A DNA stretch of 64,000 bases, taken from Candidatus Poseidoniales archaeon (GTDB lineage Archaea; Thermoplasmatota; Poseidoniia; Poseidoniales; Poseidoniaceae). The stretch covers positions 286 to 64,285 of the forward strand of contig QQRW01000018.1 in NCBI GenBank assembly GCA_003602605.1, written 5' to 3'. The notes under the pieces are model-generated. The model worked only from the letters and a program-made list of their open reading frames with translations. It had not been told where the DNA came from and made no database searches. Each line of letters begins with the position of its first letter. The first letter of the stretch is position 1. Shown one piece after another: positions 2,696 to 46,861 of this stretch. The position numbers and the translations under genes are program-made.

Positions 2696-2740
2696 GCAAA
2701 CGGCCACATCATTGAAGTGGATAACGGCCTACAGCGGTAT

Positions 2741-5215: not shown

Positions 5216-5363
5216 ACCGCCCGTAGGGCGAACTTGAGAACCCTTGAAAATCCGTCCATGAAAGGGATGGGTTCTCATAGTGGTAATTCTTGAGTGCATC
5301 ATGGTAGAGGGCCAACCGCGTTTGATTCGAGTTGGTCTGCCTCAGGCATCAGACCCCCGTCGA

Positions 5364-10008: not shown

Positions 10009-10674
10009 ATGACGGATGATTCTTCAATTTTATACAACGAACATGGAGACATGGTCGTTCATGAAGATGATATTGAATCTCTTGGGTTGCTGGACGTAGC
10101 TCGGTTGCAAAAGATAGAATCACTGGGGTATACTCTCGACGAAGACGGAATTGAGACGTACGAAGACATGCAACGTGTCACCAAAGCTCTTCGTACGATT
10201 CGTCGAGAAGTGAGCCCGAGTCGAGTCGCACTTGCAGGTATTGTTGTTCTGTTGTTGTTTGGAGTTCTAGTCAGCGGATGGTATTGGGCTCTTCCACGCG
10301 ATGCAGTCAATGTTGAGACGCAATACCTTCAGCGCGGCGGACATCTCTTGATGTCAGAAGTTCACAATGTTGGAAGCCGTGATATCACCGATGTTTCGCT
10401 CCTTATTGAATTCCAATCGATAGAAGGCGAAATACTTGACTTCATGTCCATCGAAGTTGACAAAATTGAAAGTCACTCTTCTTTGGCTGGAGATAAACTG
10501 GAAATGATAGTTATTGGTCATTCAGTTTGGGATGAATACGTCATCAAGGTGGATTTACGATACACCAACTACAACGGTGAAATTATTTCTGAAACATGGA
10601 GCCATTCCGTCGGGGTTTGGACTGTAGAACAATTTGTCGATAAGGCTGACAGGACAACATGGCCGATTTCTTGA
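10009..10674 (+). CDS. hypothetical single-pass membrane protein
   Basis: GGTGA RBS 8 nt upstream of ATG at 10009; acidic N-terminal region, one TM (VALAGIVVLLLFGVLVSGWYWAL). Co-transcribed between giant surface protein and subtilase. Confidence 0.45.
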   Translation: MTDDSSILYNEHGDMVVHEDDIESLGLLDVARLQKIESLGYTLDEDGIETYEDMQRVTKALRTIRREVSPSRVALAGIVVLLLFGVLVSGWYWALPRDAVNVETQYLQRGGHLLMSEVHNVGSRDITDVSLLIEFQSIEGEILDFMSIEVDKIESHSSLAGDKLEMIVIGHSVWDEYVIKVDLRYTNYNGEIISETWSHSVGVWTVEQFVDKADRTTWPIS

Positions 10675-10723
10675 CTCTGAAATCAACGAACTGACAGTAA
10701 TTAGAGGAGGGATAGCCGTGAAG

Positions 10724-15253: not shown

Positions 15254-15344
15254 GTTGATAACTGAGTCACATTAGTTCGAATCAAGCGTGGGTAGCCTTT
15301 TGATAGTAAGGCTTCCACCGGGGGTCATGGACCCCCGAGAAAAG

Positions 15345-24650: not shown

Positions 24651-26930
24651 ATGGCAGGTACAGATGTTACAACTACAATTCAATCGGAGTGGCTCGATTT
24701 CGCTCCGCTCATCATTCTTCTACCAATGGTTACTTTTGCAGTGATTCTCTTTCTTGGTCGAGTGTTCAACGGCCACCCGGTCTGGAAAAACAATCTGAAG
24801 GAAGGCGGCCTCATTGCGCTACCCGTTATGGGTGCCAGCCTTGTGCTCTCTCTTCTCCTGATTTCGGAGTTCCTCGGCGGGTTTAACCCTCTCAAGGTGT
24901 TTGACCCCGAAATTGCAGATAAAATTGCGTGGGTCAATTCAGCTGTTTGGAACGGCGGAAGCACCGTTACTCCTGTCTCTTTTGGTTTCGGCATTTATGT
25001 AGACCACGTTACCGTCATGCTGTTGTTTGTAGCTGCATTCTTGTGTTTGCTCATCAACACATTCAGTATTGGATACATGAACACGGACCCTATTAACGAT
25101 AACCGAAATCACCGTTTCTATGCAGAATTCGTTTTGTTCTGTTCCGGTATGCTCGGCATGGTACTTGCAGATTCGTTCCTTTGGTTGTTCATCTTCTGGG
25201 AGATAATGGGTCTCTGCTCGTACCTCTTGATTGGATTCTATTACGAACGCCCAAGTGCAGCATCTGCAGCAAAGAAGGCTTTCTTGACCACTCGTATTGG
25301 AGACGTATTCCTCATGATTGGACTTGTCATGCTTTGGGACCTCTTCGGATCGCTTGACTACGCAGTCGTCTTTGATACCCACAACATTGAGGAAGTAGCG
25401 AAGAACTCTGCAGGCACACTTCAATGGGCGCTTGGATTAATGTTCATTGGTGCCGTTGGTAAATCTGCCCAATTCCCACTTCACGTTTGGCTGCCAGACG
25501 CTATGGAAGGACCTACGCCAGTCTCCGCACTCATTCACGCTGCCACCATGGTGAACGCTGGATTGTATCTTGTTGCTCGAATGTTCCCGTTCTTTGGAGC
25601 AGAAGCGCTCCACGGCGACCTCGAAGATCTCGCCTTCATTATCGCTGCAATTGGCGGAATTACCGCAGTTATGGCGGCAGCAATCGCTTTCGTCCAGATG
25701 GATTTGAAGAAGGTCCTCGCCTATTCGACCATGAGTCAATTGGCCTACATCTTCACTGGCCTTGGATGTGCAATGTATCTGGCTAATACGCTTGACTGGC
25801 ATCATGATGATGACGCACACTACATCGTTGTTGTCGCCTTCGGTGCTGCTTTGTTCCACCTGTTCAACCACGCTATGGCTAAGGGTATGTTGTTCATGGC
25901 CAGTGGTTCAGTGATTCACGAAGTTCATCACGCTCACCATCACCTCCACCACCACGACGACCATGGTGATGGACACCACGACGACCATCACGACGATGAC
26001 TTTGATGCTCAATCGATGGAAAACATGGGAGGCTTAGCCTCAAAGATGCCAATTACTGCTACCGCAATGCTCGTTGGTTCGGCTTCGATTATGGGATTGC
26101 CACTCATTGGTGGATTCTGGTCTAAGGAAGGCATTATCGCTAACGCTTGGAGAGTTGCACTGGATGACCCACGGTTCTTCCTGCCGGCGACATGCGTACT
26201 TATCGGAGCAGCCATGACTGGCTTCTACATGTCTCGAATGTGGTTCAAGACATTTGCCGGTAAACCAAACAACGAGGTCGCAGCTCATGTTGGACCTACC
26301 AACACATGGATCAAGACGCCTCTGTTCATCTTGACTTTCGTTACCCTTTCTTCGGTAATTTTCGCAGGACTTGGCTTCACACACTGGGCTTCCGATAACG
26401 CGTATGAACTCGGTGAGAAAGGTCTGCTCAAGGGGCTTGTCTACGAATTGGAACACGCCTTTGCAAACTCCGATGCGTTCTTCTTCATCCTGACCTATGT
26501 TGCCATCTTCTTGGGTGCAATCGTCGGTCCCGGACTTGCTATGGCTCTCTACGGAGGCAAACTTGCTGACGGGGAAGAAACAAAGTCATGGATGCGCCCA
26601 GTCATTCAACTCAGTGCTTGGATTAACAAGCGCTTCCACTTCGACAACTCTGCTTTCGCAGAATCCAGTTTGGCCACCGCTCTTGAGAACCGTCTCTACA
26701 TTGATGAGTACTACGACAAAGCTATGGTAAACATCGTGGCAGGATTCTCAAACAAAGCGGCAGAAGCAGACAGCGAAGTCATTGATGGAACCATCAAGGC
26801 GATTGAAAGTGGTTCGCAATCGCTTTCATCCATTGTTCGTTCAATGACCACTGGTTCTGCACGTGATTACATCCTCATGGTGGCAGTTGGAACATTAGCG
26901 ATCTTCATGTTGATTTGGGGGGTGGCTTGA
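24651..26930 (+). CDS. nuoL: NADH-quinone oxidoreductase subunit L (ND5) with His/Asp-rich insertion
   Basis: Antiporter-like subunit motifs ('WLPDAMEGPTPVSALIHAATMV'). Contains 'HEVHHAHHHLHHHDDHGDGHHDDHHDDD' insert; long C-terminal amphipathic extension typical of NuoL. Confidence 0.9.
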   Translation: MAGTDVTTTIQSEWLDFAPLIILLPMVTFAVILFLGRVFNGHPVWKNNLKEGGLIALPVMGASLVLSLLLISEFLGGFNPLKVFDPEIADKIAWVNSAVWNGGSTVTPVSFGFGIYVDHVTVMLLFVAAFLCLLINTFSIGYMNTDPINDNRNHRFYAEFVLFCSGMLGMVLADSFLWLFIFWEIMGLCSYLLIGFYYERPSAASAAKKAFLTTRIGDVFLMIGLVMLWDLFGSLDYAVVFDTHNIEEVAKNSAGTLQWALGLMFIGAVGKSAQFPLHVWLPDAMEGPTPVSALIHAATMVNAGLYLVARMFPFFGAEALHGDLEDLAFIIAAIGGITAVMAAAIAFVQMDLKKVLAYSTMSQLAYIFTGLGCAMYLANTLDWHHDDDAHYIVVVAFGAALFHLFNHAMAKGMLFMASGSVIHEVHHAHHHLHHHDDHGDGHHDDHHDDDFDAQSMENMGGLASKMPITATAMLVGSASIMGLPLIGGFWSKEGIIANAWRVALDDPRFFLPATCVLIGAAMTGFYMSRMWFKTFAGKPNNEVAAHVGPTNTWIKTPLFILTFVTLSSVIFAGLGFTHWASDNAYELGEKGLLKGLVYELEHAFANSDAFFFILTYVAIFLGAIVGPGLAMALYGGKLADGEETKSWMRPVIQLSAWINKRFHFDNSAFAESSLATALENRLYIDEYYDKAMVNIVAGFSNKAAEADSEVIDGTIKAIESGSQSLSSIVRSMTTGSARDYILMVAVGTLAIFMLIWGVA

Positions 26931-28571
26931 ATGCAAGATTGGATTTCATTGCCGCTCGTCGGTTTCCCCTTGATCTCAAGCCTTCTTCTCTTGGCTTTCG
27001 TTTCGAAAGCAAGTGAGTCGATGCGAAACAAACTTTCCGACCCGATCCGAATGGCTTGTTTGGTGTTCTCGTTGGTTCTTCTCGGAATCACCACGGGTAT
27101 GTTCTTCCAGTACTTCGGAGACATCAGTTGGGAGGGTATTGGATTTAACCAATACGAGTACACTCATCGCTACACCTGGATTGAATCACTCGGAATTCAT
27201 TGGACTGTAGGTTTGGATGCCCTCTCCTTCCCAATGGTTTGGTTGACAACTTTCCTCCTACCTGTGACAATCATTGCTACATGGAATGAAAAGAATGGTG
27301 CTACCTACTTCCCAATCGTACTGGCAATGGGCGGCGCTTTAATCGGCGTATTCGTTGCTCTTGACTTGTTCATGTTCTACGTGTTCTGGGAATTGACACT
27401 GATTCCGATGTTCTTCCTCATCCTCATGTGGGGTGGAGCAGACAGAAAGTATGCTTCTCAGAAGTTCTTCATCTACACCTTTACCGCCTCTGTAGTGATG
27501 TTGCTCGGTCTGATAACGCTCTACTTCTTCCAAGACCCCGGAAATCCATTGGATTACGCAGGCAGCATGACCGGTCGAAGTTTCGATATTCCAACCATTA
27601 CACAACACGCTCTTGCAGAGAACAGCAATGGAAACTGGTACCTTGGAGCTAACATTCAGAAGATTCTGTTCGTAATGCTCATGCTTGGGTTCTTGGTTAA
27701 ACTTCCAGCAGTTCCATTCCACACCTGGCTGCCTGACGCTCACGTTCAAGCGCCCACGGGTGGTTCAATGCTACTAGCAGGCGTAATGCTCAAGATGGGT
27801 GCTTACGGCATGTTCCGACTGCCAATCAGTTTGTTCCCGCATGCTTTGGAGTATTTCCAACTCGCTTTGATGATTATCGGTATGATTTCGCTTGTTTGGG
27901 GAGCCATTGTCTGTTTGGGTCAAACCAATCTGAAGAAGATGGTTGCCTACTCATCCGTTTCTCACATGGGTGTCATTCTCATCGGAATCGCTACAATGCA
28001 ACCAATGGGATGGGCAGCAGCCCTCTTCATGATGTTTGCTCACGGCATCATCAGCCCGATGCTTTTCGCCGTGTGTGGCGCTTTCAAGCACCACTACCAC
28101 AGCATGGAAATCGGAGCTATGCGTGGAATGGCAAAGCACTCACCTTGGATTGCCACATCAATGATGTTTGCATGGATGGCCTCACTCGGTCTTCCACTTT
28201 TGGCAGGATTCGTTGCTGAATTAATGATGTTCATTGCTTTGTGGTATTTCATTGATGCTAACGGATGGAGCGTCTTTTGGATGGTCGGACCGGCGCTTGT
28301 ACTCGCTGTTACCGCTGCATACTACCTTTGGTCGATGCAACGAACAATCTTTGAGGGTGGAGACGAAACTCAACCTCCTGCTTCGTTGCACGGAGAACCA
28401 GTGCCCGATCTTGCATCGCCGGAGAAATTGGCTATGCTCATTCTGGCTGCCTTCACAATCCTGTTCGGTGTCATGCCGTGGATTGGTCTCGATATGATGC
28501 ATGATTGGACAAAACAAATCTTTGACGGTTTGATTTTACCAATTCTTGGTGACTTTAGCGGAGGTATCTGA
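26931..28571 (+). CDS. nuoM: NADH-quinone oxidoreductase subunit M (ND4)
   Basis: 'FHTWLPDAHVQAPTGGSMLLAGVMLKMGAYG' Mrp-antiporter-like motif; operon position. Confidence 0.9.
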   Translation: MQDWISLPLVGFPLISSLLLLAFVSKASESMRNKLSDPIRMACLVFSLVLLGITTGMFFQYFGDISWEGIGFNQYEYTHRYTWIESLGIHWTVGLDALSFPMVWLTTFLLPVTIIATWNEKNGATYFPIVLAMGGALIGVFVALDLFMFYVFWELTLIPMFFLILMWGGADRKYASQKFFIYTFTASVVMLLGLITLYFFQDPGNPLDYAGSMTGRSFDIPTITQHALAENSNGNWYLGANIQKILFVMLMLGFLVKLPAVPFHTWLPDAHVQAPTGGSMLLAGVMLKMGAYGMFRLPISLFPHALEYFQLALMIIGMISLVWGAIVCLGQTNLKKMVAYSSVSHMGVILIGIATMQPMGWAAALFMMFAHGIISPMLFAVCGAFKHHYHSMEIGAMRGMAKHSPWIATSMMFAWMASLGLPLLAGFVAELMMFIALWYFIDANGWSVFWMVGPALVLAVTAAYYLWSMQRTIFEGGDETQPPASLHGEPVPDLASPEKLAMLILAAFTILFGVMPWIGLDMMHDWTKQIFDGLILPILGDFSGGI

Positions 28572-28572
28572 A

Positions 28573-30303
28573 ATGTCGAACCTAACTGAAATCGAACCGT
28601 TCGGAGAAGGATTTGTCGAAGCAATGGGGCCAGAACTCATTTTGTTTGTTGGCATGATACTCCTTATCATCGTACCAAATCTCGGTAAAGGTACATTCCG
28701 CATACCTGGAACTCAAGTGAGACTACCTTGGCTTCTGGGTGGTCAGCGTTTTACAATTACCAGTGACCCACGGCTGCCTGCTTGGCTGGCAACCTTGACT
28801 TTAGGCGGTGCTTTCTTCAATGTTCTCTACACATTCAGCCAGGGACTCGACCGGGTTGCTATCGTGACTGAATCTGGAAAGCAATTGCTACTTGTAAACG
28901 GCTTCAGTAGGATTTTCGAACTGATTTTCTTTGGTGCTCTTGCACTTGCTGCATTTTCAAGCATGAACCGTCTACGTGTGGATGGTGTTGGTTCAAAGGT
29001 ATCAGAAACTGAATTATTCAACAACCGACGGCAAGCTGATTTCTACATCTTGATGGTAACTTGTGCACTGGGAATGTCCGTTGTCGCACTTGCCCAAGAT
29101 CTGTTTGTGTTGTTCATCGGGCTTGAACTTGCATCGTTCTCTACCTATGTCCTCGTTGCGTTCCTCAAGGAATCCAAGGTTGGGGTTGAATCTGGAATGA
29201 AATACTTCATCGTCGGTTCAGTTGCTTCAGGTGTCGGTCTATACGGCCTGTCGATGCTTTACCTCTGGGCAGGTTCGCTGCAATTCGATGTATTGGCTAC
29301 TGCTTTTGCAACGACCAGTTCAACAGAAATGGCTCTGCCGTTAATCGGAATCGGCTTTGTGCTGGTTGGATTTGGTTTCAAGGTCAGTGCAGCCCCATTC
29401 CACTTCGCTGCTCCAGATGCGTATGCTGGAGCAACAAGTCCTGTTGCCGGTGTTCTTGCAACTGCAAGCAAGGCAATGGGAATGATTGGATTGGTTCGTA
29501 TGTTACTCATTGTTGCGGCTCCTGAAACCGGTGATGGCAGTGCTATCTGGCTTGTTTGTCTTGGCGTTCTTGCAGCGGTTACCATGACTTGGGGTAACCT
29601 GGCCGCTCTTGGCAGCGACAATCCAAAGCGAATGCTCGCTTATTCCTCCGTTGCTCACGCTGGTTACATGCTGGCTGCTCTCACTGCAGTTGGTGCTTGG
29701 AACTGGGATGCTGCAGTGTCTGGCGATGCTGGTGCGGCAGCGGTTGCCGTCTTGACGGCTGTAATCTTCCACCTGCTGGTTTTGGTTGCCTTCAAACTCG
29801 GCGCCTTCCTCGTACTGTCCATTCTTGAATCAGAAGGCGATGTTTCCCGTTTGTCTTCACTTGGCGGCCTTGCTAAGCGAGAACCACTCCTTGCAGTCTC
29901 AATGTTCATCTTCATGATTTCACTTGCAGGTGTTCCACCAATGGCTGGGTTCCTTTCGAAGTTACTCGTCATCATGGGAATCGTCCGTGTCGCCGTTGGT
30001 GACATGGGTGCGGAACTCGCCGATGGCGGCATCTACGCACTAGGCGACATGCACTGGGTTTGGTGGCTTGCGTTGTTAATGGTCCTCAACTCAGCGATTT
30101 CGATGTTCTACTATCTTCGTGTCGGTGTCGTTATGTTCTTTGACGAACCTGAAGAAGGCCGTGAAGGGCCACTTCCGTCCGGCTGGCAAGTACGTGCAGC
30201 AATCTTTGCTTGTGTCCTTACGACACTCATCATTGGTGTCGCTGGAGACGCAGTGCTTCGCCTTTGTGAAATGGCTGCTCAGAGTCTCAACTACAACTGG
30301 TGA
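28573..30303 (+). CDS. nuoN: NADH-quinone oxidoreductase subunit N (ND2)
   Basis: GAGGT RBS then ATG at 28573; 'APFHFAAPDAYAGATSPVAGVLATASKAMG' antiporter-like motif; last gene of operon. Confidence 0.85.
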   Translation: MSNLTEIEPFGEGFVEAMGPELILFVGMILLIIVPNLGKGTFRIPGTQVRLPWLLGGQRFTITSDPRLPAWLATLTLGGAFFNVLYTFSQGLDRVAIVTESGKQLLLVNGFSRIFELIFFGALALAAFSSMNRLRVDGVGSKVSETELFNNRRQADFYILMVTCALGMSVVALAQDLFVLFIGLELASFSTYVLVAFLKESKVGVESGMKYFIVGSVASGVGLYGLSMLYLWAGSLQFDVLATAFATTSSTEMALPLIGIGFVLVGFGFKVSAAPFHFAAPDAYAGATSPVAGVLATASKAMGMIGLVRMLLIVAAPETGDGSAIWLVCLGVLAAVTMTWGNLAALGSDNPKRMLAYSSVAHAGYMLAALTAVGAWNWDAAVSGDAGAAAVAVLTAVIFHLLVLVAFKLGAFLVLSILESEGDVSRLSSLGGLAKREPLLAVSMFIFMISLAGVPPMAGFLSKLLVIMGIVRVAVGDMGAELADGGIYALGDMHWVWWLALLMVLNSAISMFYYLRVGVVMFFDEPEEGREGPLPSGWQVRAAIFACVLTTLIIGVAGDAVLRLCEMAAQSLNYNW

Positions 30304-30407
30304 GGCTGTTCTTTCGGCTTAAACGCCCTATTGCGGGACTTTTGAGACGGGTTCTTGGGTGCTGTATTCAAGAAGGGTCGGCTGTTGGGATATACAGGTG
30401 AGACTAC

Positions 30408-31109
30408 TTGGGTCGACGTTATGAAGAAAAAGTGGATGTAGAAGAGCTTGCTCGACTCGAAAATCCAGAAGACGCGTCAGGCGGTAAAATCCGTGTCAAG
30501 ATGCCGAACCGTAAAATCAACGAAATGTTTGCATTTGCTGAACAGATCCTAGGTGGTCGACGTGTTACTGTTCTCTGTGAAGACGGTGAAACCCGTATGG
30601 CTCGAATCCCCGGTAAGATGCGCCGCCGTCAGTGGGTCCGTGATGGGGACCTCATCATTGTCTGGCCTTGGGATTTCCAAGACTCCAAAGCAGATGTAAA
30701 GCACCGTTACACCAAAACTCAAGCAATGTACCTTTCACGCAAAGGCGTTCTCCCGAAGGAGTTGGATTTCTTTGGTATGAATACATCAAACGATGATGAC
30801 GATGATGAATTCTCTGACACCTTCGGTACGATGGATGAGCCTGAAGAACAAGAAACCGATGATTTGTTTGGTTCTGATGACGACGATGATGACGATGATT
30901 TGTTTGGTTCTGATGATGACGATGACGATGATTTGTTCGGCTCAGACGACGATGACGATGATGACGATGATTTGTTTGGTTCCGATGATACAGAGGAAGA
31001 AGCACCGGCTGAAGAAGTTCCACACATCCCTGTTGAAGAATATCCCGCAGAAGACGATGACGACGATGACGATGACGATGACGAGGACCTCGAAGCCTTG
31101 TTTGGTTGA
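30408..31109 (+). CDS. eif1a: translation initiation factor aIF-1A with extended poly-Asp repeat C-terminal tail
   Basis: N-terminal about 110 aa match the eIF-1A OB-fold ('KIRVKMPNRKINEMFAFAEQILGGRRVTVLCEDGETRMARIPGKMRRRQWVRDGDLIIV'). This is followed by four or more 'DDLFGSDDDDDDD' repeats and a terminal 'DLEALFG'. Confidence 0.8.
   Translation: MGRRYEEKVDVEELARLENPEDASGGKIRVKMPNRKINEMFAFAEQILGGRRVTVLCEDGETRMARIPGKMRRRQWVRDGDLIIVWPWDFQDSKADVKHRYTKTQAMYLSRKGVLPKELDFFGMNTSNDDDDDEFSDTFGTMDEPEEQETDDLFGSDDDDDDDDLFGSDDDDDDDLFGSDDDDDDDDDLFGSDDTEEEAPAEEVPHIPVEEYPAEDDDDDDDDDDEDLEALFG
30857..30990 (+). repeat. in-frame tandem repeat (about 39-bp unit, about 3.5 copies) encoding DDLFGSDDDDDDD
   Basis: 'gatgatttgtttggttctgatgatgacgatgacgatgat' recurs with minor variation at 30860, 30899, 30935 and 30968. 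Confidence 0.8.
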
Positions 31110-31135
31110 AGTGATGCAAGACCCTGGGTGGGCGA

Positions 31136-32143
31136 ATGGCGAAAGGAAACGACTGGGAAGACGAGTTGGGCTCCAACAAACGCCAGCGTAAACGCCGTCG
31201 CCAGAATAAACAAGCTCGAAAAAAGAACTCTTCAGAGCAGAGCATGGATGAAGACTATGCAAAGAGCGAACAAGACCACTTTCTCAGCAACCTTGAGGCA
31301 AAATCCGGTGCTTTCAACTGGATGAAGGAAGACCGTTACAAGCGAATGTTTCGCGACATAGAATCCAAGATTCAAGGTGCGTTAGGAACTGGGACATACG
31401 ATTGGGTTGACCGACGAGTATTCGACCAGGTTTTTGACAGAATGACCCTCATGTCTCTGTACAAATTGATGAAAGCCGGTACGATTGACACCCTCGATTT
31501 CCCAATCGCTCGAGGTAAGGAAGCTCACGTCTTCCACGCAACAGACATTGACGGCAAAGTCGTAGCTGTGAAGATTTTCCATACCTCCAATGCCGTTTTC
31601 AAGAATCTGATTCAGTACATCGAAGGTGATCGCAGATTTGGCGGCCTACGACGCCGACACCGCGATCTTGTTGACATCTGGGTTCGAAAGGAGCACCGTA
31701 ATTTGTCACGTCTTTCACGTTGGGGATTGAATGTACCTCGCCCGCTTGGCATACACAAGAATGTCCTCGTGATGGAGTATGTAGGAAACAATGTATCAGC
31801 ATCGCCTAAACTCCGTGAGGTGAAAGTTGATGACTCCGAAAGTGTCTTCAAAGATTTGTTGGAATTTTTGGCAATTTGTTGGCAAAAAGCAAACTTAGTC
31901 CATGGAGATTTTTCGCCGTACAATATTCTCTGGCACGACGGAAGAGCCATGGTTATCGATGTCGGCCAAGCGGTCATCCAAACCCACCCTAAAGCACAGG
32001 AGTTCCTCGTTCGCGATGTCACTCGTTTGGTCGAGTGGGGTAAGAAAAACGGAGTAAAAATGGAACTCGCTGAAGCAATGTTTGAGGTGCTCAACATGAA
32101 CCTCGACCACATTCAGCAGCAGATGTTTTCTGAAGAGGAATAA
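31136..32143 (+). CDS. rio1: RIO-type serine/threonine protein kinase (Rio1)
   Basis: Basic N-terminal region, 'AHVFHA', 'LVHGDFSPYNILW', 'VIDVGQAV' kinase motifs; lies next to aIF-1A in a conserved archaeal neighbourhood. Confidence 0.85.
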   Translation: MAKGNDWEDELGSNKRQRKRRRQNKQARKKNSSEQSMDEDYAKSEQDHFLSNLEAKSGAFNWMKEDRYKRMFRDIESKIQGALGTGTYDWVDRRVFDQVFDRMTLMSLYKLMKAGTIDTLDFPIARGKEAHVFHATDIDGKVVAVKIFHTSNAVFKNLIQYIEGDRRFGGLRRRHRDLVDIWVRKEHRNLSRLSRWGLNVPRPLGIHKNVLVMEYVGNNVSASPKLREVKVDDSESVFKDLLEFLAICWQKANLVHGDFSPYNILWHDGRAMVIDVGQAVIQTHPKAQEFLVRDVTRLVEWGKKNGVKMELAEAMFEVLNMNLDHIQQQMFSEEE

Positions 32144-32953
32144 TCACTCTTCGCCCCAACTGACTTCTTCATCTTCTGCAAGTTCCATCATTTCGATGAC
32201 AGCTTCTTCGTCTTCCGGGTCAACTTGGGCTGCACGCATGCGTCGATTCCGTCGTTCAGAGAGGTCAGATAAGCCAGGTACGAGTCCTTCAAATCCAGTG
32301 GAAGGGGCAGTTGTGTCCTCGCGTATTTCGATGCTGTCAAGTTGACGATTTACGATTCGAGACCGTCTTCGATCCCGTTCGAGGAAGTTGAGTACGGTCC
32401 CATGTTCTGCCCCACCGGCAATCATTTCGATAGCTTGACGGGCAGCGGAAAGGCCTTCTTCTTCACCGACCAATACAACCGTAGAATTGTAAATGGTGAT
32501 TTGAGTGTCGGTTAATCCCTCGATGAGTTTGCGGATTTTCCCTTGGCTTCCAATAATACGCCCGCGGATTCTGCGTTGTTGATTCGATCTTTTACCAACG
32601 AATTTTCGGATATCAACAAGTTCGAAAAAGTGGTTGTCTTCAAGCAACTGAATTGCCGCTTTCGGAGCCATACCTCTGCCGATAGCTTTGATGACGTTTG
32701 GAAATTTCATTGCTTTGACAGGATCATAAGTGCCAGGCTCTCCCCAAACAACTTCGACATCACCGGTTTCGGAGTCGATGTTGAATTCCTCGCATCCTGA
32801 TGCGGTTCGGAGGGACTTCGCAGTCGCTCCTTTTGAACCAATAAGCACCGCGATGCGGTTCATTGGTACACGAGGCAGTGGCTGGCGCATGGCTAATCCT
32901 ACAGCCGACCTCTTTTCAATCTCTTGTTCGGCGTTGGAATACACTGATGGCAA
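32144..32953 (-). CDS. KH-domain RNA-binding protein (archaeal Dim2/Pno1-like)
   Basis: Two KH-like GxxG segments ('IGSKGATAK', 'IIGSQGKIRK'); completes the aIF1A-Rio1-KH archaeal gene neighbourhood; acidic C-terminus. Confidence 0.65.
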   Translation of the reverse strand: MPSVYSNAEQEIEKRSAVGLAMRQPLPRVPMNRIAVLIGSKGATAKSLRTASGCEEFNIDSETGDVEVVWGEPGTYDPVKAMKFPNVIKAIGRGMAPKAAIQLLEDNHFFELVDIRKFVGKRSNQQRRIRGRIIGSQGKIRKLIEGLTDTQITIYNSTVVLVGEEEGLSAARQAIEMIAGGAEHGTVLNFLERDRRRSRIVNRQLDSIEIREDTTAPSTGFEGLVPGLSDLSERRNRRMRAAQVDPEDEEAVIEMMELAEDEEVSWGEE

Positions 32954-34721
32954 AACCAGCCAAGAGAAGAAGCATTACTGACGGAGCAAAAGACGGCACT
33001 AATCCTGGTGAACCGATCGAAGCGCCAGTAACGACCATGTGGTTGTAATTGTTACCTTCGTCGTACTCATCGATGACGTTCACGTAGTCGATGACCAGGC
33101 GTAGGTCGAACTGTCCGGTTTTCGGAACTGTGTAGTTCCAAATAAGCAACTCTTCACGGTCGGCGAGCGAGTTCGTTTCCAAAGTTCGTGATTCCATTAC
33201 AGTCCATGATACGGATGAGGTTCGGTCAGCCGGTGCTGATTCAAGCCGTACAACGACGCTTCCACCATAATCTTGGTTGCTTTCCAGCAGGCTCGTGATT
33301 GTAACATTACCATCAGTTTCTCCCGGTCGAACAATCTGTCGGTCAAGATTGGTTTCTGTTGCGTTCCAGTACAGATCAAGGCCTGGAAGGATTTGGTAAG
33401 CGCTTGGATTGGATGTGTATTCATTTCCAGCATTGTCAACAACGATTGCCCGGAACATCAAGTATTGACGCGATTTTGTGGCCCAGCTGGCGAGTCCAAT
33501 TGAGCCGGTAAGCCCCGGTGAGCTCATTTGCAACCAGTTACCGGAGAGGTCAGGAGTTTGTCCAACACCGTTTGAGTCGAAACCGAATTGGATGTATGAG
33601 TTGGATGAATCAATTCCCGAGCCGTCGTCTACGGCATTGAATTGAACATTCGCCGGACCGATGCGACTTGTGGTTAACTCATCGACGGCCCATCCAATCG
33701 ACACTGGAAGTGTGTCATCGATTCGGATTTCGACCAAGGTAGTGGCACCAATGTTACCGACTCTGTCAATAGCGCGAACTGAGACGGTGTGGTTGCCTTC
33801 TGCAAGGCTAAGTTGGACGGAATCAGAAGTCGTTGTGTTCCATACCACGCCGTCCAATGAATATTCAGCGGATGCAACACCGCTGCCTTGACCATCATCG
33901 GCGTTGTTGATGAGACCACTCAAGGTGACATCGGTTGATTTTTGCCAGTTTGAGCCGTCTCCGACTGTAACTGATGAAAGCGTAGGTCCCGTTCTGTCGA
34001 TACCGACAAACATTGTCTTGGTTGCAGATAGACTCGAACTGTCGTAAACAGTGAGACGTGAGTTCCACGTTCCTTCCGCCATGGCGCCACTGCTCCAATC
34101 CCATCCATAGGCAAGGTTTCCAGGTCCGTCGTTTGCTGGTGCTCCTGGACCAGGTACATTGGTAATTGTCGCATAGCTGAGGTCGTCATCGCTTGCGCCC
34201 CAACGGTAGGCCAATGTTCCGTCCGTTGGGATACTAAACCATGCTCTGTCCGAAGCCGATGTGCCGGTTCCAGCAGCTGCATTGAGTGCTGTGAAAATTG
34301 TGATTACTGGGACTTGATTGACGATGTTGAAGGTGCCTGATGTTGCAACAACAGATTCGTTGACATCATCATCCCATGCTGTCGCTCGAAGGCTGTAAGA
34401 GCCGTTGGTATAACTTGTTGAGTCAAAGTAGGTTAACCATGGCGTAGTCGTGAGGTTGGTAACCGTTGTCCAACTGCTTCCATCACTGGAAATTTCTATG
34501 AGGATGGATGACACATTTGCCTCACCGCTCATCGAAAACGACAGGCTGAGCAGCCCAGTTACATCCTGATTTTGAGTCGGACCGTTTGAGAAACCCAGTG
34601 TTAAATCTGAGTTTGTGAAAAGGTTGGTTTTCGAATCGTCGAGTTCGAGATGAACTGTAGGAGTTGTACTCATGAATAGGAGAAGTACGACGAGAACCAC
34701 ACTCGGCCAACTCCTTCCCAT
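32916..34721 (-). CDS. secreted Ig-like/CARDB-like surface protein with C-terminal TM anchor
   Basis: Signal peptide (MGRSWPSVVLVVLLLFMSTTPTV). Beta-rich Thr/Ser/Asn/Gly composition. C-terminal 'LVPSFAPSVMLLLLAGFAISVFQRRTRD' (PGF-CTERM-like variant). Confidence 0.6.
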   Translation of the reverse strand: MGRSWPSVVLVVLLLFMSTTPTVHLELDDSKTNLFTNSDLTLGFSNGPTQNQDVTGLLSLSFSMSGEANVSSILIEISSDGSSWTTVTNLTTTPWLTYFDSTSYTNGSYSLRATAWDDDVNESVVATSGTFNIVNQVPVITIFTALNAAAGTGTSASDRAWFSIPTDGTLAYRWGASDDDLSYATITNVPGPGAPANDGPGNLAYGWDWSSGAMAEGTWNSRLTVYDSSSLSATKTMFVGIDRTGPTLSSVTVGDGSNWQKSTDVTLSGLINNADDGQGSGVASAEYSLDGVVWNTTTSDSVQLSLAEGNHTVSVRAIDRVGNIGATTLVEIRIDDTLPVSIGWAVDELTTSRIGPANVQFNAVDDGSGIDSSNSYIQFGFDSNGVGQTPDLSGNWLQMSSPGLTGSIGLASWATKSRQYLMFRAIVVDNAGNEYTSNPSAYQILPGLDLYWNATETNLDRQIVRPGETDGNVTITSLLESNQDYGGSVVVRLESAPADRTSSVSWTVMESRTLETNSLADREELLIWNYTVPKTGQFDLRLVIDYVNVIDEYDEGNNYNHMVVTGASIGSPGLVPSFAPSVMLLLLAGFAISVFQRRTRD

Positions 34722-34914
34722 GATGCTGTGACGGGTGCGGTTATCCTTGAATGCTCCCCTTGATATGGGTCGTTTCTCGTCAAATGAGTTCTGTCTTTTT
34801 CACATCAGTCATGTATTACCTCTCACGGAGCAGACGAATCTTTGCCTTGAAGTGGTTTTTTTTCATGGCTCGCAGAGATGGGTTCAAGTGCTCCGCAGGT
34901 TGTCGAATACCTAC

Positions 34915-37716
34915 ATGGCAAGCGCGTGGAAGCCGATATTGGCAATTCTTCTCCTCTGTATAGCATCGGTTCCGATGCCTGTATCAGCGGAGCAAAGCGG
35001 TTCGATTCAGGCAAGTCCGAGTACGGTTGCCCTACTTCCAGCCAATCCTGTTGCAGGTGGTTCGGTCACGATTAACCTGCAATTGTACAACAGCGGCAAC
35101 TATGCGACAGATGTCGAATACTCATTTTATCGTGATTCGAGAGGTCCTGACCAACTTCTCAAAGAAGCCACGATTGATATCGATACAGAAACCTCTGCGC
35201 AGGTTTCAGCAGTGTGGAACGGACTCACTGAAGGTGATCACGAGGTTCATATCACTTTCGAACATCCTCGAAACTCTGGTAACGAAGCGCATTTCTGGGT
35301 TGACTTTACCGTTACCGGGCTTCCGAACCTCAAGGTAACGCAAACTGAACTTACACCAGCGACTGGAATTTTCTCAGGAGACACTGTTATGCTTTCTTCA
35401 CTTGTCCGAAATGTAGGCAGTGAACCTGCAGTCTCAAGTATCCTTCACATCGACTTACCCGGTTCGAGCGACTTGGATCTCACAACTCCGCCTCTTGACG
35501 CAGGGGCAACAGAATGGGTCAACACAACTTTTACCGCTCCTGAAAGTGGCTCACACATACTCTATGTTACGCCGGATTACCAAGATGCAGTTCAGGAGTC
35601 ATCAGAATTCAACAAAGTGATAGAAGTTCCACTCGTTGTTGATACTCGGATGGATGTTTTCCACATTGGAGAACTAACAGTAGACATTGCCGAAGGGGCT
35701 CTTCAAGGCCCGTGGGTGGTTTCAGGAAAACTCGGCCGAACCAATGGTACCGGTTTATCGGATGTACCAATGTGGCTCCAAATTTCAAGTCTAACCGGTC
35801 AATTGGTTACAACTGCGCCATTTAGCGTGCCGTTGAGTGGAACAGGATATGCTGAATCGACGTGGAGCCATACCCTTACCGCTGCTGAACTCGATGGACT
35901 ACCTGCCGGTATGCATACCATCACTGCTAAGATTGACCCGTTCTCGAATGCTGCTTTTACACAAGAGTCAACAGATAACGACGAGGTTTCAAGCACCCTC
36001 TCTAAGTTTGAGGTGCCTGATGTATTCGTTGATGCGAACGCTATCGCCTCATCCCCATCGGTAAACTCCGGAGATTCGGTTGAATGGCGTGTAAGTATGA
36101 TCAATACTGGCGATATTCGTGTTTCTGGTCGATTACACTACACATGGGAAGGGACAACTGAAACCTCTCCGATTATCTATCTCGATTCCGGTCAAGATTA
36201 CACCTGGGTCGTTGAACTCACCACCGCTATTGGTGCACACCAGGCTGACTTCGAGGCTCAGTGGGTCGCTTCTTCAAACAGTTGGGACTCAAACCCCTTG
36301 AACAGCGTTGCAACCGGTACGGTCTCCGTAGAAGCAAATTTACGTCTTAGCTGGGCTCTCTCAACCCTCGAAGTGACCGATTCAGAAGGTTCGGCATTCA
36401 CACTCCCAATGACTCAAGGAAACGATTATTCCCTTACCATCGATTTGACCAGTACTGCTACTGGTTCACTAACTTATGATTGTGTAGATGGCAACGATGA
36501 ACTCATTAGCACAGTTACTGCTGAAGTTGTGAACCTCGGAGACAAGGTCACGCTTACATGTGATTTTACCGCAGTAGCCCCGTCTACTGTCGTGCGATTG
36601 GTGCCCTCGGATTCAACGATTTCAAACACCTTTACGCGGACATTCTCTACCGTACTAAGCGGAGATGAAATTGATGATATGAATTCCAATTCTGAACTTG
36701 GGACGTTCACGCTGATTGGGTTCGTTGCCGTTATTCTCATAGCTATCCTGGCAATTTCAGTGTTTTTGACCCGTGAATCAGAGGAAGAAGTTGAACGTGA
36801 CATTTTCGAGTACTGCCCAGCATGCGATGGTGAACTCGAAGGTGATGAAGACCGATGCCCTCATTGTTCATTCAATCTCAAGAAGGCGAGAAAGCAATTC
36901 CATGATTGCAATGAATGTGGCGAATCGATTCCAGATTTACTCGACAATTGTGTCTATTGCGGTGCTGAACAAGACGTCTCCTCCTTCTTTGAGAAGCGAG
37001 AACGTAAGGAACGCACGGTCAAAGAAACGGTTGCTTTGCCTGATGAAATTGACGAAGACGCTATCGTTACAGGAACCGAGAACTTTGCTCAAGCTGTGAA
37101 AGAGTTTGGATTTGATGAAGATGAACTTGAGTTTGAATGGGATGAGAACATCGCAACTGCTGAAGCGGAAGTCGAAGCCGCTTATGATCGTCGAAACGCT
37201 GACGAAATTCTGCGTGAGGACATGACTGAAGAAGAATTGGAAGCGTACGAAAACACAGTTACAACCACGCTCAAGAGCATGAAGGATCTCAGTGAGAGTT
37301 CAAACGACATCGACGCTATTTTGGCTTCGAAGGGCGAGATTATTGCACACAAGGACGATGGAAAGGATCTTTCAGCAAGCGATGCAGACATTCGTGGTCG
37401 ACTGTATGAGATTACTGGGGAAGACGGAATCATGCCGGGCGACAAAGTGAACGTCGGCATGCAACTGTCAGATTCAGCATTTGCAGGAAACGAAGTAACG
37501 GAAACCACCTCTGATTTCACTGTAATTGACGACGAAAAACCGCTTTCAAAGATCGAAGATTTGGCTCCTAAGGCTGAGAAACCTGCCCGCAGGAGAGGTG
37601 CTCGTCGCAAAGCTGCTGAAGAAGTAAAGCCCGATGTTGCAGAGTGTGGTGCGTGCGGTGCTGATTTGCCGGTTGAAGCTACTGAATGTGGAACCTGTGG
37701 CGCTAAGTTTGAGTGA
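34915..37716 (+). CDS. CARDB-repeat surface protein with TM and cytoplasmic domain bearing three zinc ribbons
   Basis: Signal peptide (MASAWKPILAILLLCIASVPMPVSA). Repeated 'NxGxxxA' CARDB-like modules. TM (FTLIGFVAVILIAILAISVFL). Cytoplasmic 'CPACDGELEGDEDRCPHC', 'CNECGESIPDLLDNCVYC', an acidic helical region, and terminal 'CGACGADLPVEATECGTCGAKFE'. T9 tract 55 bp upstream. Confidence 0.7.
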   Translation: MASAWKPILAILLLCIASVPMPVSAEQSGSIQASPSTVALLPANPVAGGSVTINLQLYNSGNYATDVEYSFYRDSRGPDQLLKEATIDIDTETSAQVSAVWNGLTEGDHEVHITFEHPRNSGNEAHFWVDFTVTGLPNLKVTQTELTPATGIFSGDTVMLSSLVRNVGSEPAVSSILHIDLPGSSDLDLTTPPLDAGATEWVNTTFTAPESGSHILYVTPDYQDAVQESSEFNKVIEVPLVVDTRMDVFHIGELTVDIAEGALQGPWVVSGKLGRTNGTGLSDVPMWLQISSLTGQLVTTAPFSVPLSGTGYAESTWSHTLTAAELDGLPAGMHTITAKIDPFSNAAFTQESTDNDEVSSTLSKFEVPDVFVDANAIASSPSVNSGDSVEWRVSMINTGDIRVSGRLHYTWEGTTETSPIIYLDSGQDYTWVVELTTAIGAHQADFEAQWVASSNSWDSNPLNSVATGTVSVEANLRLSWALSTLEVTDSEGSAFTLPMTQGNDYSLTIDLTSTATGSLTYDCVDGNDELISTVTAEVVNLGDKVTLTCDFTAVAPSTVVRLVPSDSTISNTFTRTFSTVLSGDEIDDMNSNSELGTFTLIGFVAVILIAILAISVFLTRESEEEVERDIFEYCPACDGELEGDEDRCPHCSFNLKKARKQFHDCNECGESIPDLLDNCVYCGAEQDVSSFFEKRERKERTVKETVALPDEIDEDAIVTGTENFAQAVKEFGFDEDELEFEWDENIATAEAEVEAAYDRRNADEILREDMTEEELEAYENTVTTTLKSMKDLSESSNDIDAILASKGEIIAHKDDGKDLSASDADIRGRLYEITGEDGIMPGDKVNVGMQLSDSAFAGNEVTETTSDFTVIDDEKPLSKIEDLAPKAEKPARRRGARRKAAEEVKPDVAECGACGADLPVEATECGTCGAKFE

Positions 37717-38422: not shown

Positions 38423-39619
38423 TTAGACAAGTGAATCGTTGCAAGCGTATCGCCGAGAACAATTCCTACACTTGCCGGGGCGATCGTGATTACGCGCTGC
38501 ACCACCTTCGACCATGAGCCTCTGAATTTCAAATACGGCATCGAAGAGTTCGTTTTTTGCACTTTCAGTCCAAGGTATCTGGTGCAGGTTTTCACTTCCA
38601 TACCTTAACACGCCATAGGGGGAACTTTTGTTTGTACTTTTTTCGACTAAATGCAGGTATGCAAGGAGCTGCATTCGGTGGCTTGGGTGTGGATTTTTTG
38701 GCACCTTACCCGTTTTCTGCTCGACCGGAATAAACTCGCCATCCACGATGACAATTTGGTCGGGTCTGCCTCGCAGTCCCAGTTTTTCATCGCTGAGAAG
38801 GTTTGAGTCGACATCGTTATCGGAATAGGCTATTTCATCATCCTTTTCCAAGTCAATATCCTTCTTCATCGATTGAAGTTCGTTATCAGATAGCAGTACG
38901 CGCTGGAGTTGCCACGATGCTGCTAAAGTCCAAGTCATTGCGGTAATGAAGAGGATAAAAGTGGCTTGTTCACGGTTATCTGCAGCTGCTAAGGCAATTG
39001 CGTGAAGACCTAAAACGATCGAGCCGAACAGTAAACTTGCCTCAACTCTGCCTGCCTCAAACCAGCCTCCAATGAATCCTTTCGGCTCCCAGAATTGATT
39101 CAAATCATCGCGCTCTTCCAAGAACTTTGTTTTCTGTCGAGGTAGCGTTTCATTGAGTCCAATCCAAGAGCGCCATGGGACCGAAATTGCGATCAGTCCG
39201 GCAATCAATGTCGTTACGCTCCACAAAGCGAGATACCTCGCCATGTAGAGTGGCGTGACTACGTCATCGATGTAATTGAACGCTACAGCGTCAATCGATA
39301 ATGCAATGATGACGGAGAACCACCAAGTCCAGATGGTGACGGAACGACGCATTTGAGTTTGAACCTCTTTGAAATCTTTCATTTTGGAGTGAATTTCTGC
39401 GTGTCTTTTGATTCCGGCGGTGATGGCTTCACCTTGCCCAGAATTTCCTTCCCGGGACAGCGACCATGAAAGCGGGCAATACTCGTGGCGTTCTAAATCG
39501 CTGGCGCTTACTGGTAAAGCAACTCCCTGAGAGTCACGCCAAACACCGTCTTCGGATTGAGTTGCACTCAGTCCACCGATTAGTCCAGTGCTCTCTGTCA
39601 TTTGCAACCCCCCTCCCAT
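38423..39619 (-). CDS. Cas4/DUF83-like PD-(D/E)xK Fe-S nuclease interrupted by a 4-TM membrane insertion
   Basis: N-terminal 'HEYCPLSW' (Cas4 N-terminal Cys helix). Four hydrophobic helices (residues about 95-240). Then 'IVIVDGEFIPVEQKTGK' (D..ExK), 'QLLAY' (QhxxY) and C-terminal 'C-x2-C-x5-C' (CRNCSRRYAC). This is the canonical Cas4 motif order. Confidence 0.55.
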   Translation of the reverse strand: MGGGLQMTESTGLIGGLSATQSEDGVWRDSQGVALPVSASDLERHEYCPLSWSLSREGNSGQGEAITAGIKRHAEIHSKMKDFKEVQTQMRRSVTIWTWWFSVIIALSIDAVAFNYIDDVVTPLYMARYLALWSVTTLIAGLIAISVPWRSWIGLNETLPRQKTKFLEERDDLNQFWEPKGFIGGWFEAGRVEASLLFGSIVLGLHAIALAAADNREQATFILFITAMTWTLAASWQLQRVLLSDNELQSMKKDIDLEKDDEIAYSDNDVDSNLLSDEKLGLRGRPDQIVIVDGEFIPVEQKTGKVPKNPHPSHRMQLLAYLHLVEKSTNKSSPYGVLRYGSENLHQIPWTESAKNELFDAVFEIQRLMVEGGAARNHDRPGKCRNCSRRYACNDSLV

Positions 39620-46591: not shown

Positions 46592-46861
46592 ATCGCCGAC
46601 GTTTTTTTTTCTGTGCAGGGGGACCCATCCTTGAGGTGCCTATTGGATGGGTGTTGGATGGGTTACAATTTTTCAATGCCTCTTCATGGAATGAATATGG
46701 ATGGTAAACAGTTTTTTTCAATCTCACAACGACTTTCCAACCTTGCTGGCCAAGTCCATTTAATTTAGATTGAAAATCGGAATCAACTATCGATAGCAGT
46801 GAGGCTTTCAGCCTTGCCCGTCGGGTCAACCTTCTTATGGGACGAGGTGTGGGAAGTCGCC

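Follow-up and report, generated by a model that had tools for sequence, protein, structure and literature searches.

Introduction

Initiation factor 1A is an orthologous protein of Archaea (aIF1A) and eukaryotes (eIF1A), and archaeal aIF1A, described as a bare OB fold of ~100 residues, is stated to have no C-terminal tail (PMC7531240, PMC9226500, PMC5009744). The contact between the eIF1A tail and domain IV (D4) of eIF5B is described as eukaryote-specific, and archaea, too, possess D4's helical subdomain (PMC5009744, PMC9226500, PMC7531240). In the 30S complex of Pyrococcus abyssi, the C-terminal helix of aIF1A contacts domain IV of aIF5B (PMC9226500), and some archaeal aIF5Bs carry an extra C-terminal helix on the D4 surface that the eIF1A tail uses (PMC5009744, PMC7531240). 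The human eIF1A tail touches its own OB domain, which reduces the affinity for eIF5B-D4 (PMC5009744). Here we describe an aIF1A with a long acidic C-terminal tail that is studded with short hydrophobic-Phe-Gly motifs. It is encoded in a 64,000-nucleotide stretch of DNA ('the window') from Candidatus Poseidoniales archaeon (assembly GCA_003602605.1, contig QQRW01000018.1, positions 286 to 64,285 of the forward strand).

Two further described systems share motifs with this tail. The first is the ribosomal P-stalk. The C-terminal peptide of P. horikoshii aP1 (EALAGLSALFG) forms a helix from which G102, L103, L106 and F107 are inserted into a hydrophobic groove of aEF2; for GTPase binding, L103, L106 and F107 are essential, G102 is also needed for aEF2, and aP1's conserved residues at the C-terminus recognise aEF2, aEF1A and aIF5B directly (PMC5887453). 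Seven stalk tips pool factors around the ribosome, and they also serve aIF5B and ABCE1 (PMC7768734). The second is the central acidic region of eEF1B-alpha/beta/delta (…DDDIDLFGSD(N/D)EEE…; PDB 2mvm, 2n51), a dynamic element of a translation factor that binds TCTP (PMC9458455). In the part of the literature covered by our search, no paper mentions aIF1A together with Marine Group II (MGII), and the papers combining Poseidoniales with 'initiation factor' do not seem to be about the factor itself; within that coverage, the MGII aIF1A tail appears to be undescribed.

Results

The gene at 30408-31109 encodes a true aIF1A, and it comes from an archaeon of the Poseidoniaceae (Marine Group IIa); a genome-collection scan matched two loci, in Poseidoniales and Poseidoniaceae MAGs. 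It exceeds the cut-offs of NCBIfam NF003084 (residues 25-118; E = 2.5e-36; 123.7 bits, cut-off 91), TIGR00523 (9.1e-34; 115.4 bits, cut-off 102.9) and Pfam PF01176 (residues 38-100; 8.9e-19; 67.3 bits, cut-off 30.2); NCBIfam NF003085 spans residues 22-115, and the PDB aIF1A chains 1jt8, 4mno and 5jb3 align over residues 26-119 (best E = 1.6e-26). A first-pass annotation of the window had named the protein in the same way and had called its tail exceptional for an archaeal aIF1A, which agrees with the reviews cited above. The gene and its parts are:

30408..31109, + strand: aIF1A gene, TGA stop included, 233 aa (family profiles and PDB matches)
30396..30402, + strand: Shine-Dalgarno-like AGGTGAG, read from the sequence, 6 nt before the TTG start
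30471..30764, + strand: OB fold and C-terminal helix of aIF1A, residues 22-119 (NCBIfam, Pfam and PDB alignments)
30750..30782, + strand: motif M1, LPKELDFFGMN, residues 115-125; D120, F122, G123, M124 and N125 invariant in 31 Poseidoniaceae sequences
30792..30827, + strand: motif M2, DDDDDEFSDTFG, residues 129-140; F139 invariant in the same 31 sequences
30858..30983, + strand: four tandem DDLFGS units with D8, D7 and D9 between them, residues 151-192
31020..31046, + strand: motif M4, PHIPVEEYP, residues 205-213; V209 and E210 invariant, PVEEYP core in most Poseidoniaceae lineages
31053..31082, + strand: Asp10 run, residues 216-225; its length differs by single codons between near-identical alleles
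31083..31106, + strand: terminal motif EDLEALFG-COOH, residues 226-233; L228, L231 and F232 spaced i, i+3, i+4

The open reading frame (ORF) starts with TTG at 30408 and stops with TGA at 31107-31109. The TTG is a credible start, because the N-terminal peptide MGRR(Y/R/H)EEKVD is kept in homologues from both Poseidoniaceae and Thalassarchaeaceae; an alternative start, GTG at codon 9, is picked by some gene callers. Three Ser- or His/Arg-rich ORFs overlapping the tail in other frames, at 30655-31245 (-), 30719-31213 (-) and 30793-31191 (+), were rejected as shadows of the repeat, and no other real ORF with such a tail was found within the 64-kb window.

The tail comprises residues 120-233, that is 114 residues with 41% Asp and a net charge of -62, next to an OB part of +6; its composition suggests that it is intrinsically disordered. 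It begins with LDFFGMNTSN-DDDDDEFSDTFG-TMDEPEEQET, continues with DDLFGS-D8-LFGS-D7-LFGS-D9-LFGS and closes, after these four units, with DDTEEEAPAEEVPHIPVEEYPAE, D10 and EDLEALFG directly before the stop codon. Seven motifs of the type Φ-Phe-Gly (Φ denoting a hydrophobic residue) are thereby presented: LDFFG (119-123) and DTFG (137-140) lie upstream of the repeats, four lie in the tandem repeat and one forms the terminus. The first-pass annotation had read the repeats correctly (four DDLFGS units with D8, D7 and D9 between them, then EEAPAEEVPHIPVEEYPAE, D10 and EDLEALFG), and its long acidic tail, its tandem DNA repeat and its hydrophobic motifs are all borne out. Its figures, however, need revision: it gave the tail 120 residues, counted five motifs, missing the two that precede the repeats, and assumed a period of 39 bp, whereas the LFG units start at 30858, 30894, 30927 and 30966 and hence follow one another at 36, 33 and 39 nt. 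Tandem Repeats Finder reports 3.6-3.7 copies with 73-80% match, and the longest perfect DNA repeat measures 29 nt.

Ser156, Ser168, Ser179 and Ser192 (30864-30983) each stand after LFG and before an Asp run (LFGSDDDD), which would make an ideal acidophilic (CK2-type) phospho-acceptor context. Ser after FG is common in Poseidoniaceae and not conserved in Thalassarchaeaceae.

The tail is real. The identical 233-aa protein is encoded on 10 contigs and its alternative-start form on 4 more, and the corresponding 90%-identity cluster has 96 members, including MDG1555557.1 from 'Candidatus Poseidoniaceae archaeon'. All 13 of the cluster members listed with a complete tail have four LFG units and differ only by 1-2 Asp or Glu codons. 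Since the exact protein recurs on 14 independent contigs and the number of units is constant, an assembly artefact, against which the first-pass annotation had cautioned, is excluded. The proneness to copy-number variation that it had foreseen was likewise overstated, as in these members the Asp runs alone vary, by 1-2 codons.

In many database copies of MGII aIF1A the reading of the GAT/GAC repeat slips by a frame (to +1 or +2) within the tail, and the proteins then end in MTTMMTT… or in Arg/Ser-rich sequence (for example, P0122-P0126 and P0129; P0025, P0059 and P0065), and the cluster representatives of MGII aIF1A are often such copies. Either the repeat was sequenced or assembled wrongly in them, or they are true frameshift alleles.

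When the OB part was used as query, 2350 proteins were retrieved at E <= 1e-10, and the tails were read in the best 120 of them. These 120 have OB folds that are 89-99% identical, are mostly 206-223 aa long and follow one common tail plan. Among the 50%-identity representatives, the tail is present in homologues that are at least 73% identical, and those at 58% identity or less end just past the OB fold. A search seeded with the 73% representative yielded 120 proteins of 194-241 aa, the sources of which include 'Candidatus Thalassarchaeum' and 'Thalassarchaeaceae' (Marine Group IIb). Thalassarchaeaceae tails are 85-100 aa long, have a Glu/Pro/Ala-rich spacer and are devoid of poly-Asp tandem repeats, and 115 of the 120 exhibit all three of the motifs LPEIVDVFG (the counterpart of M1), DDAGIFG (the counterpart of M2) and DDDIDSLFGPA; a few have one extra LF dipeptide, and the tandem poly-Asp DDLFG expansion is absent. 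Tails are thus on record in >200 unique sequences of Poseidoniaceae and Thalassarchaeaceae, with the families confirmed by source names. These alignments place the tail across the Marine Group II order, with three motifs kept at the junction with the OB fold, ~15 residues further on and at the end. They also identify the DDLFGSD(n) tandem expansion as a Poseidoniaceae addition of 1-4 units, the number of DDLFG units ranging from 0 to 4 among Poseidoniaceae lineages. The choice offered by the first-pass annotation, a eukaryote-like elaboration or a lineage-specific low-complexity expansion, was hence too coarse, as low-complexity growth describes the Poseidoniaceae DDLFGSD(n) part only. The comparison of tail lengths in relatives that it had called for cuts both ways: the tail is retained by every relative from 73% identity upwards and is missing from those at 52-58%.

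The nearest of these tail-less relatives (52-58% identity) all end …(I/L/V)P(K/E)x(I/L/V)D(I/V)(F/Y)-COOH, as in IPKEIDIF, IPKVVDIF and IPEILDIY. Their C-terminus (…LPKEIDIF) coincides exactly with M1 (LPKELDFFG), so that the MGII tail seems to have been added to an ancestral C-terminus of acidic-hydrophobic type, of which the later Φ-Phe-Gly motifs are plausibly copies. A tail-less aIF1A also occurs in a cluster named 'Candidatus Poseidoniales archaeon' by NCBI, on a Tara contig with 37.5% G+C content (GC; locus L084), where it is part of its own aIF1A-Rio1-KH operon. The possibility that this protein is a second paralogue was rejected on account of that operon and of the single aIF1A held by each of the window and the tail-bearing loci L001 and L002; it is the orthologue of a more distant lineage. 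No relative of aIF1A was found in the viral contigs scanned.

All tail-less aIF1As of Thermoplasmatota type share the end …P(K/E)x(I/L/V)D(I/V)(F/Y)-COOH. Several other archaeal aIF1A representatives have acidic and then aromatic ends (…EEF, …EDF, …GEF, …LEF, …LPEEFGE, …LPRDFGI), the acidic-hydrophobic/aromatic ends being seen in P0133-P0141, P0152, P0159, P0176, P0206 and others. A short acidic-hydrophobic C-terminal signal may therefore be widespread in archaeal aIF1A, despite its description as tail-less in the literature. Glu-rich tails of 40-50 aa that contain no F-G motifs are seen in the non-MGII aIF1As P0198, P0230, P0235, P0249 and P0253.

An alignment of 31 Poseidoniaceae sequences separates the tail into invariant columns (D120, F122, G123, M124, N125, F139, V209, E210, D225 and F232) and unalignable spacers. 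In 95 unique Poseidoniaceae-type tails Gly stands after 74% of the Phe residues, and in 113 unique Thalassarchaeaceae tails after 84%, where 6-7% would be expected from the frequency of Gly, which amounts to a ~12-fold enrichment of FG. Phe is preceded by Leu, Met, Ile, Val, Thr or Phe, with Asp predominating at positions -2 and -3. All 116 intact Poseidoniaceae-type tails finish with a motif of six residues, in which a hydrophobic residue and then Phe-Gly (once Phe-Ala) come last, most often IDSLFG (45), LESLFG (36) or LEALFG (24). Identical motif peptides are encoded with differing codons at loci of 43%, 48% and 63% GC: LFG is TTG-TTT-GGT in the window vs CTG-TTC-GGA in L002, and Asp is encoded by 29 GAT and 18 GAC codons in the window vs 8 GAT and 41 GAC in L002. 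Since the motifs are kept despite the change of codons and GC content, selection acts on the peptide and not on the DNA repeat. The alignments hence mark the hydrophobic motifs as the conserved, selected part of the tail, with spacers, codons and poly-Asp lengths left to drift.

On sequence, the terminal LxxLFG has its closest archaeal analogue in the end of the P-stalk that binds factors, a likeness overlooked in the first-pass annotation. LEALFG compares with LSALFG or LGALFG, and L228, L231 and F232 are spaced as are L103, L106 and F107 of aP1. In both aIF1A and the stalk proteins aP1/aP0, a flexible acidic region precedes a free end with the core L-x-x-L-F-G-COOH, though in aIF1A without the Gly (G102) that stands before it in aP1, and both systems present multiple copies of the motif per particle, seven stalk tips as against the seven Φ-Phe-Gly motifs of aIF1A. 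A GLxxLFG end is present in ~190 of ~200 aP1 sequences (120 database proteins and 80 metagenomic ones, drawn from Thermococcales, Sulfolobales, methanogens, halophile-like archaea and others), and the remainder are near-variants or truncated. The systems differ in that the stalk is a ribosomal protein of the 50S subunit, whereas the tail is attached to a 30S initiation factor and carries internal copies of the motif that are not C-terminal; moreover, aIF1A has no PF00428 dimerisation/P0-binding domain. As the PF00428 profile matches neither aIF1A nor its tail, and as the N-terminal part is the aIF1A OB fold, the protein is not a stalk protein.

The tail also resembles that of eukaryotic eIF1A. 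Both belong to orthologous proteins and are attached at the equivalent point after the C-terminal helix (…LP…), and both are acidic and, to judge by composition in the case of MGII, disordered, contain F-G dipeptides and have an acidic-hydrophobic end. In a gapless HMMER alignment over residues 117-158, DTFGTMDE falls on FEFGNADE of yeast eIF1A (3wbk_C, 3j80_i), with E = 1.8e-5 when the OB end is counted in; along the tail, the score derives largely from composition. However, the tail in the window is 3-4 times longer (114 aa vs about 26-40), ends LxxLFG rather than DIDDI (IDIDSLFG, EINDLFG or IDSLFGPA in relatives) and includes tandem DDLFG units, and this aIF1A has no basic N-terminal tail. 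The resemblance is real as a pattern, though largely a matter of composition, and we read it as convergence in view of the phylogenetic distance between Thermoplasmatota and the eukaryotic stem. Since the tail belongs to a non-scanning Thermoplasmatota lineage, it most likely arose independently of the eukaryotic one.

Two likenesses lie outside initiation factors. The central acidic region of eEF1B shares with the tail an identical DLFGSD in acidic flanks, but as a single internal copy in an unrelated protein, and the profile of the corresponding family (EF1_beta_acid) was not matched by the tail in Pfam at E <= 10; we regard the match as a curiosity at the motif level. The Ser of its DLFGSD is presumably a CK2 site. 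Bacterial SSB, in turn, is a protein-interaction hub composed of an OB fold, a disordered linker and an acidic C-terminal tip (…DDDIPF). It offers an apparent analogy, since an OB-fold nucleic-acid binder is likewise followed by a disordered acidic linker and an acidic-hydrophobic-Phe end, and tail-less relatives of MGII aIF1A end …EIDIF; it nevertheless belongs to an unrelated protein family and process.

The genes adjoining aIF1A in the window are:

24651-30303: three consecutive Proton_antipo_M genes (nuoL/M/N-like) of 759, 546 and 585 aa, ending 104 nt upstream of aIF1A
31136..32143, + strand: Rio1-type kinase (Pfam RIO1, 7.2e-51), 27 nt downstream of aIF1A
32144..32953, - strand: KH-domain protein, Dim2/Pno1/KRR1-like (Pfam KH_KRR1_2nd, KH_1)

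The order nuoN-aIF1A-Rio1-KH is common to the window, L001 and L002 (in L001 only as far as a partial Rio1 gene at the contig end). The aIF1A-Rio1-KH neighbourhood is also seen in L084 and L085, but the adjacency of nuoN and aIF1A is not seen in the tail-less L084. In the tail-bearing loci, Rio1 is extended at its N-terminus by ~80 aa that include a polybasic run, which reads KRQRKRRRQNKQARKK in the window (31136-31380), NRNRKRKSKRSKSKKK in L001 (about 6380-6600) and RSRQRRGRRGRRRR in L002 (6683-6900). The Rio1 of L084 has 246 aa (8466-9206) and no such extension. The KH protein has 269 aa in the window and, by its ORF, as many as 321 aa in L002 (7709-8674, -). It is encoded on the strand opposite to aIF1A, contains a segment rich in Arg and carries an acidic extension at its C-terminus (…DPEDEEAVIEMMELAEDEEVSWGEE); in L084 it has 173 aa (9203-9724) and is co-directional. 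An acidic aIF1A tail and a basic Rio1 extension thus co-occur in the three tail-bearing loci and are both absent from the fourth locus compared, and possibly they co-evolved.

Elsewhere in the window, very large ORFs of 600-1570 aa (2717-5215, 5280-10004, 10634-15253, 15288-18257, 32916-34721 (-), 34735-37716 and 46799-50887) contain, as scanned, PKD, CARDB or bacterial Ig-like domains, and one of them zinc ribbons; they resemble the surface or adhesion proteins typical of MGII. A 398-aa protein at 38423-39619 (-) has a C-terminal PD-(D/E)XK/Cas4-like nuclease domain (Pfam 1.7e-10, 6e-09).

Discussion

On the 30S subunit, aIF1A occupies the A site and adjoins aIF5B. Because of this position, and because the end motif copies the stalk tip, we propose that the tail is a flexible, multivalent, stalk-like arm that recruits factors to the 30S initiation complex, most likely aIF5B. 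We put the probability of this reading at roughly 40%. The C-terminal helix of aIF1A touches domain IV of aIF5B (PMC9226500), so that the tail would emerge beside this factor. The partner and the mechanism are what we infer from the motifs, and may be pictured as follows. The tail is a string of acidic-hydrophobic-Phe-Gly short linear motifs separated by fast-evolving acidic spacers. Its stalk-type Φ-Phe-Gly peptides would capture and concentrate GTP-bound aIF5B on the 30S complex ahead of the arrival of the 50S subunit with its own stalk, and at subunit joining the stalk tips would compete for the shared groove of the factor. ABCE1 or aEF1A are further possible partners. In such a scheme the tail would be an archaeal, independently evolved counterpart of the eIF5B-binding tail of eukaryotic eIF1A.

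Several observations weigh against the proposed recruiting arm. (i) Within the stalk motif, the position of G102, which is needed for aEF2, is taken by Asp in the aIF1A tail; in Thalassarchaeaceae the motif is followed by Pro-Ala (…IDSLFGPA) and is not strictly C-terminal; and the internal DDDLFG units of the window are without the hydrophobic residue at i-3, which other lineages have as VDDLFG or VDAMFG. (ii) The match is, as far as the recovered sequences tell, to the stalk tips of other archaea, since the aP1/aP0 of MGII itself is not among them: a chimeric profile combining the aP1 N-terminal domain with the MGII tail matched only aP1 of Thermococcales, Sulfolobales, Methanoculleus and halophile-like lineages, none of 80 loci from a metagenome scan with the aP1 alignment was MGII-like in composition, and the scan of viral contigs yielded no MGII aP1 either. 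No ribosomal stalk operon is located at the ends of the window, and neither aIF5B nor any other translational GTPase is encoded in the window, L001, L002, L084 or L085. (iii) In the PDB, the whole tail finds a sole match in the central acidic region of human eEF1B-delta (EDDDIDLFGSDNEEE; weak, E = 0.032), and its last 39 residues find no sequence match; in Pfam at E <= 10, the tail alone finds only Nucleoporin_FG, which is sub-threshold and was taken as compositional. An AlphaFold2 model built on the 31-sequence alignment was discarded (mean predicted local distance difference test score of 48), since the OB fold itself was not modelled owing to the shallow alignment of near-identical sequences. 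(iv) The tail-less 'Poseidoniales' orthologue shows that the tail is dispensable in near relatives.

The recruiting arm can be taken one step further, to a 'stalk on the small subunit'. In this more tentative form, which may be right but which we hold to be rather improbable as a whole, 3-7 copies of the factor-binding peptide of the P-stalk would gather aIF5B on the 30S initiation complex, with ABCE1 or aEF1A as possible further cargo, the factor would be handed over to the 50S stalk at joining, and archaea would have independently reinvented the link between the eIF1A tail and eIF5B with the code of the stalk.

Other explanations keep the tail and assign it a different task. It might dock on domain IV of aIF5B as in eukaryotes, with its end (…EDIDIDSLFG or …EDLEALFG) acting like DIDDI and its proximal F-G motifs like the Phe repeats of scanning enhancers. 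The equivalent position of the tail in an orthologous protein, the gapless alignment of yeast eIF1A through residues 117-158 and the many lineages that end IDIDSLFG speak for such docking, but we consider it unlikely. Not only is the part of the alignment that covers the tail largely compositional, but the protein ends in LFG instead of DIDDI, has no Lys-rich N-terminal tail like that of eIF1A and functions in a domain of life without scanning; the D4 surface is, moreover, covered in some archaeal aIF5Bs by their extra C-terminal helix (PMC5009744, PMC7531240), and any likeness would be convergent given that Marine Group II, within Thermoplasmatota, is far from the eukaryotic stem.

We judge it improbable to a like degree that the tail acts chiefly through its charge, as a polyanion that folds onto the basic face of the OB domain (auto-inhibition) and/or repels 23S rRNA against premature joining of the 50S subunit, with the F-G motifs as weak intramolecular anchors. 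A charge of -62 over 114 residues beside an OB part of +6, and spacers that vary freely while staying acidic, are what such a device would call for, and parallels exist in the acidic tip of bacterial SSB, where auto-inhibition is concerned, and in the human eIF1A tail, which by contacting its own OB domain lowers the affinity for eIF5B-D4 (PMC5009744). Charge alone, however, leaves the strict conservation of Phe-Gly and of the terminal hydrophobic motif unexplained, and Thalassarchaeaceae tails are far less rich in Asp and still keep the three motifs.

A partner in 30S maturation appears decidedly unlikely. The tail would then bind the polybasic extension of Rio1, or the extended KH/Dim2-like protein, and couple late 30S maturation to initiation. 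The Rio1 extension is indeed present in 3 of 3 tail-bearing loci (the window, L001 and L002) and the acidic KH extension in both of those that are readable there (the window and L002), both proteins are short in the tail-less L084 (246 and 173 aa), and the Ser of LFGSDDD lies in an acidophilic kinase context. This co-occurrence, however, is drawn from just four loci, archaea whose aIF1A has no tail generally possess the aIF1A-Rio1-KH cluster too, and Ser after FG is not conserved outside Poseidoniaceae. Finally, neutral junk that arose by slippage and that a free C-terminus tolerates, or a repeat put together wrongly in assembly, is very improbable: single-codon shifts of the Asp runs between near-identical alleles, the many frameshifted 50%-cluster representatives and the one tail-less lineage named Poseidoniales would be in keeping with it, but the exact allele stands on 14 independent contigs, the tail is in frame in >200 unique sequences of two families, its motif columns are invariant with FG enriched ~12-fold, and its motif peptides persist although the codons differ between loci of 43-63% GC.

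The aIF1A tail of Marine Group II is a real, conserved variant of a known factor, from which a specific mechanism follows as a lead that can be tested. In an archaeal order that is among the most abundant of the surface ocean, aIF1A has a conserved tail of 85-125 residues, at variance with the published picture of a bare OB fold. Even if this tail were to bind nothing, it would still represent a clean natural case of short linear motifs that are selected within a fast-drifting poly-Asp region. Reviews and structural papers have so far treated the contact between the eIF1A tail and eIF5B as a eukaryotic invention. If the MGII tail binds aIF5B, tail-mediated coupling of factor 1A to factor 5B would have evolved at least twice, a testable system of recombinant proteins and peptides would be at hand for multivalent disordered arms that recruit translational GTPases, and the small subunit would be shown to carry a factor-pooling device of its own. 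Should the more far-reaching 'stalk on the small subunit' hold, the …(E/K)xIDIF ends of tail-less aIF1As might be regarded as a minimal form of that docking signal.

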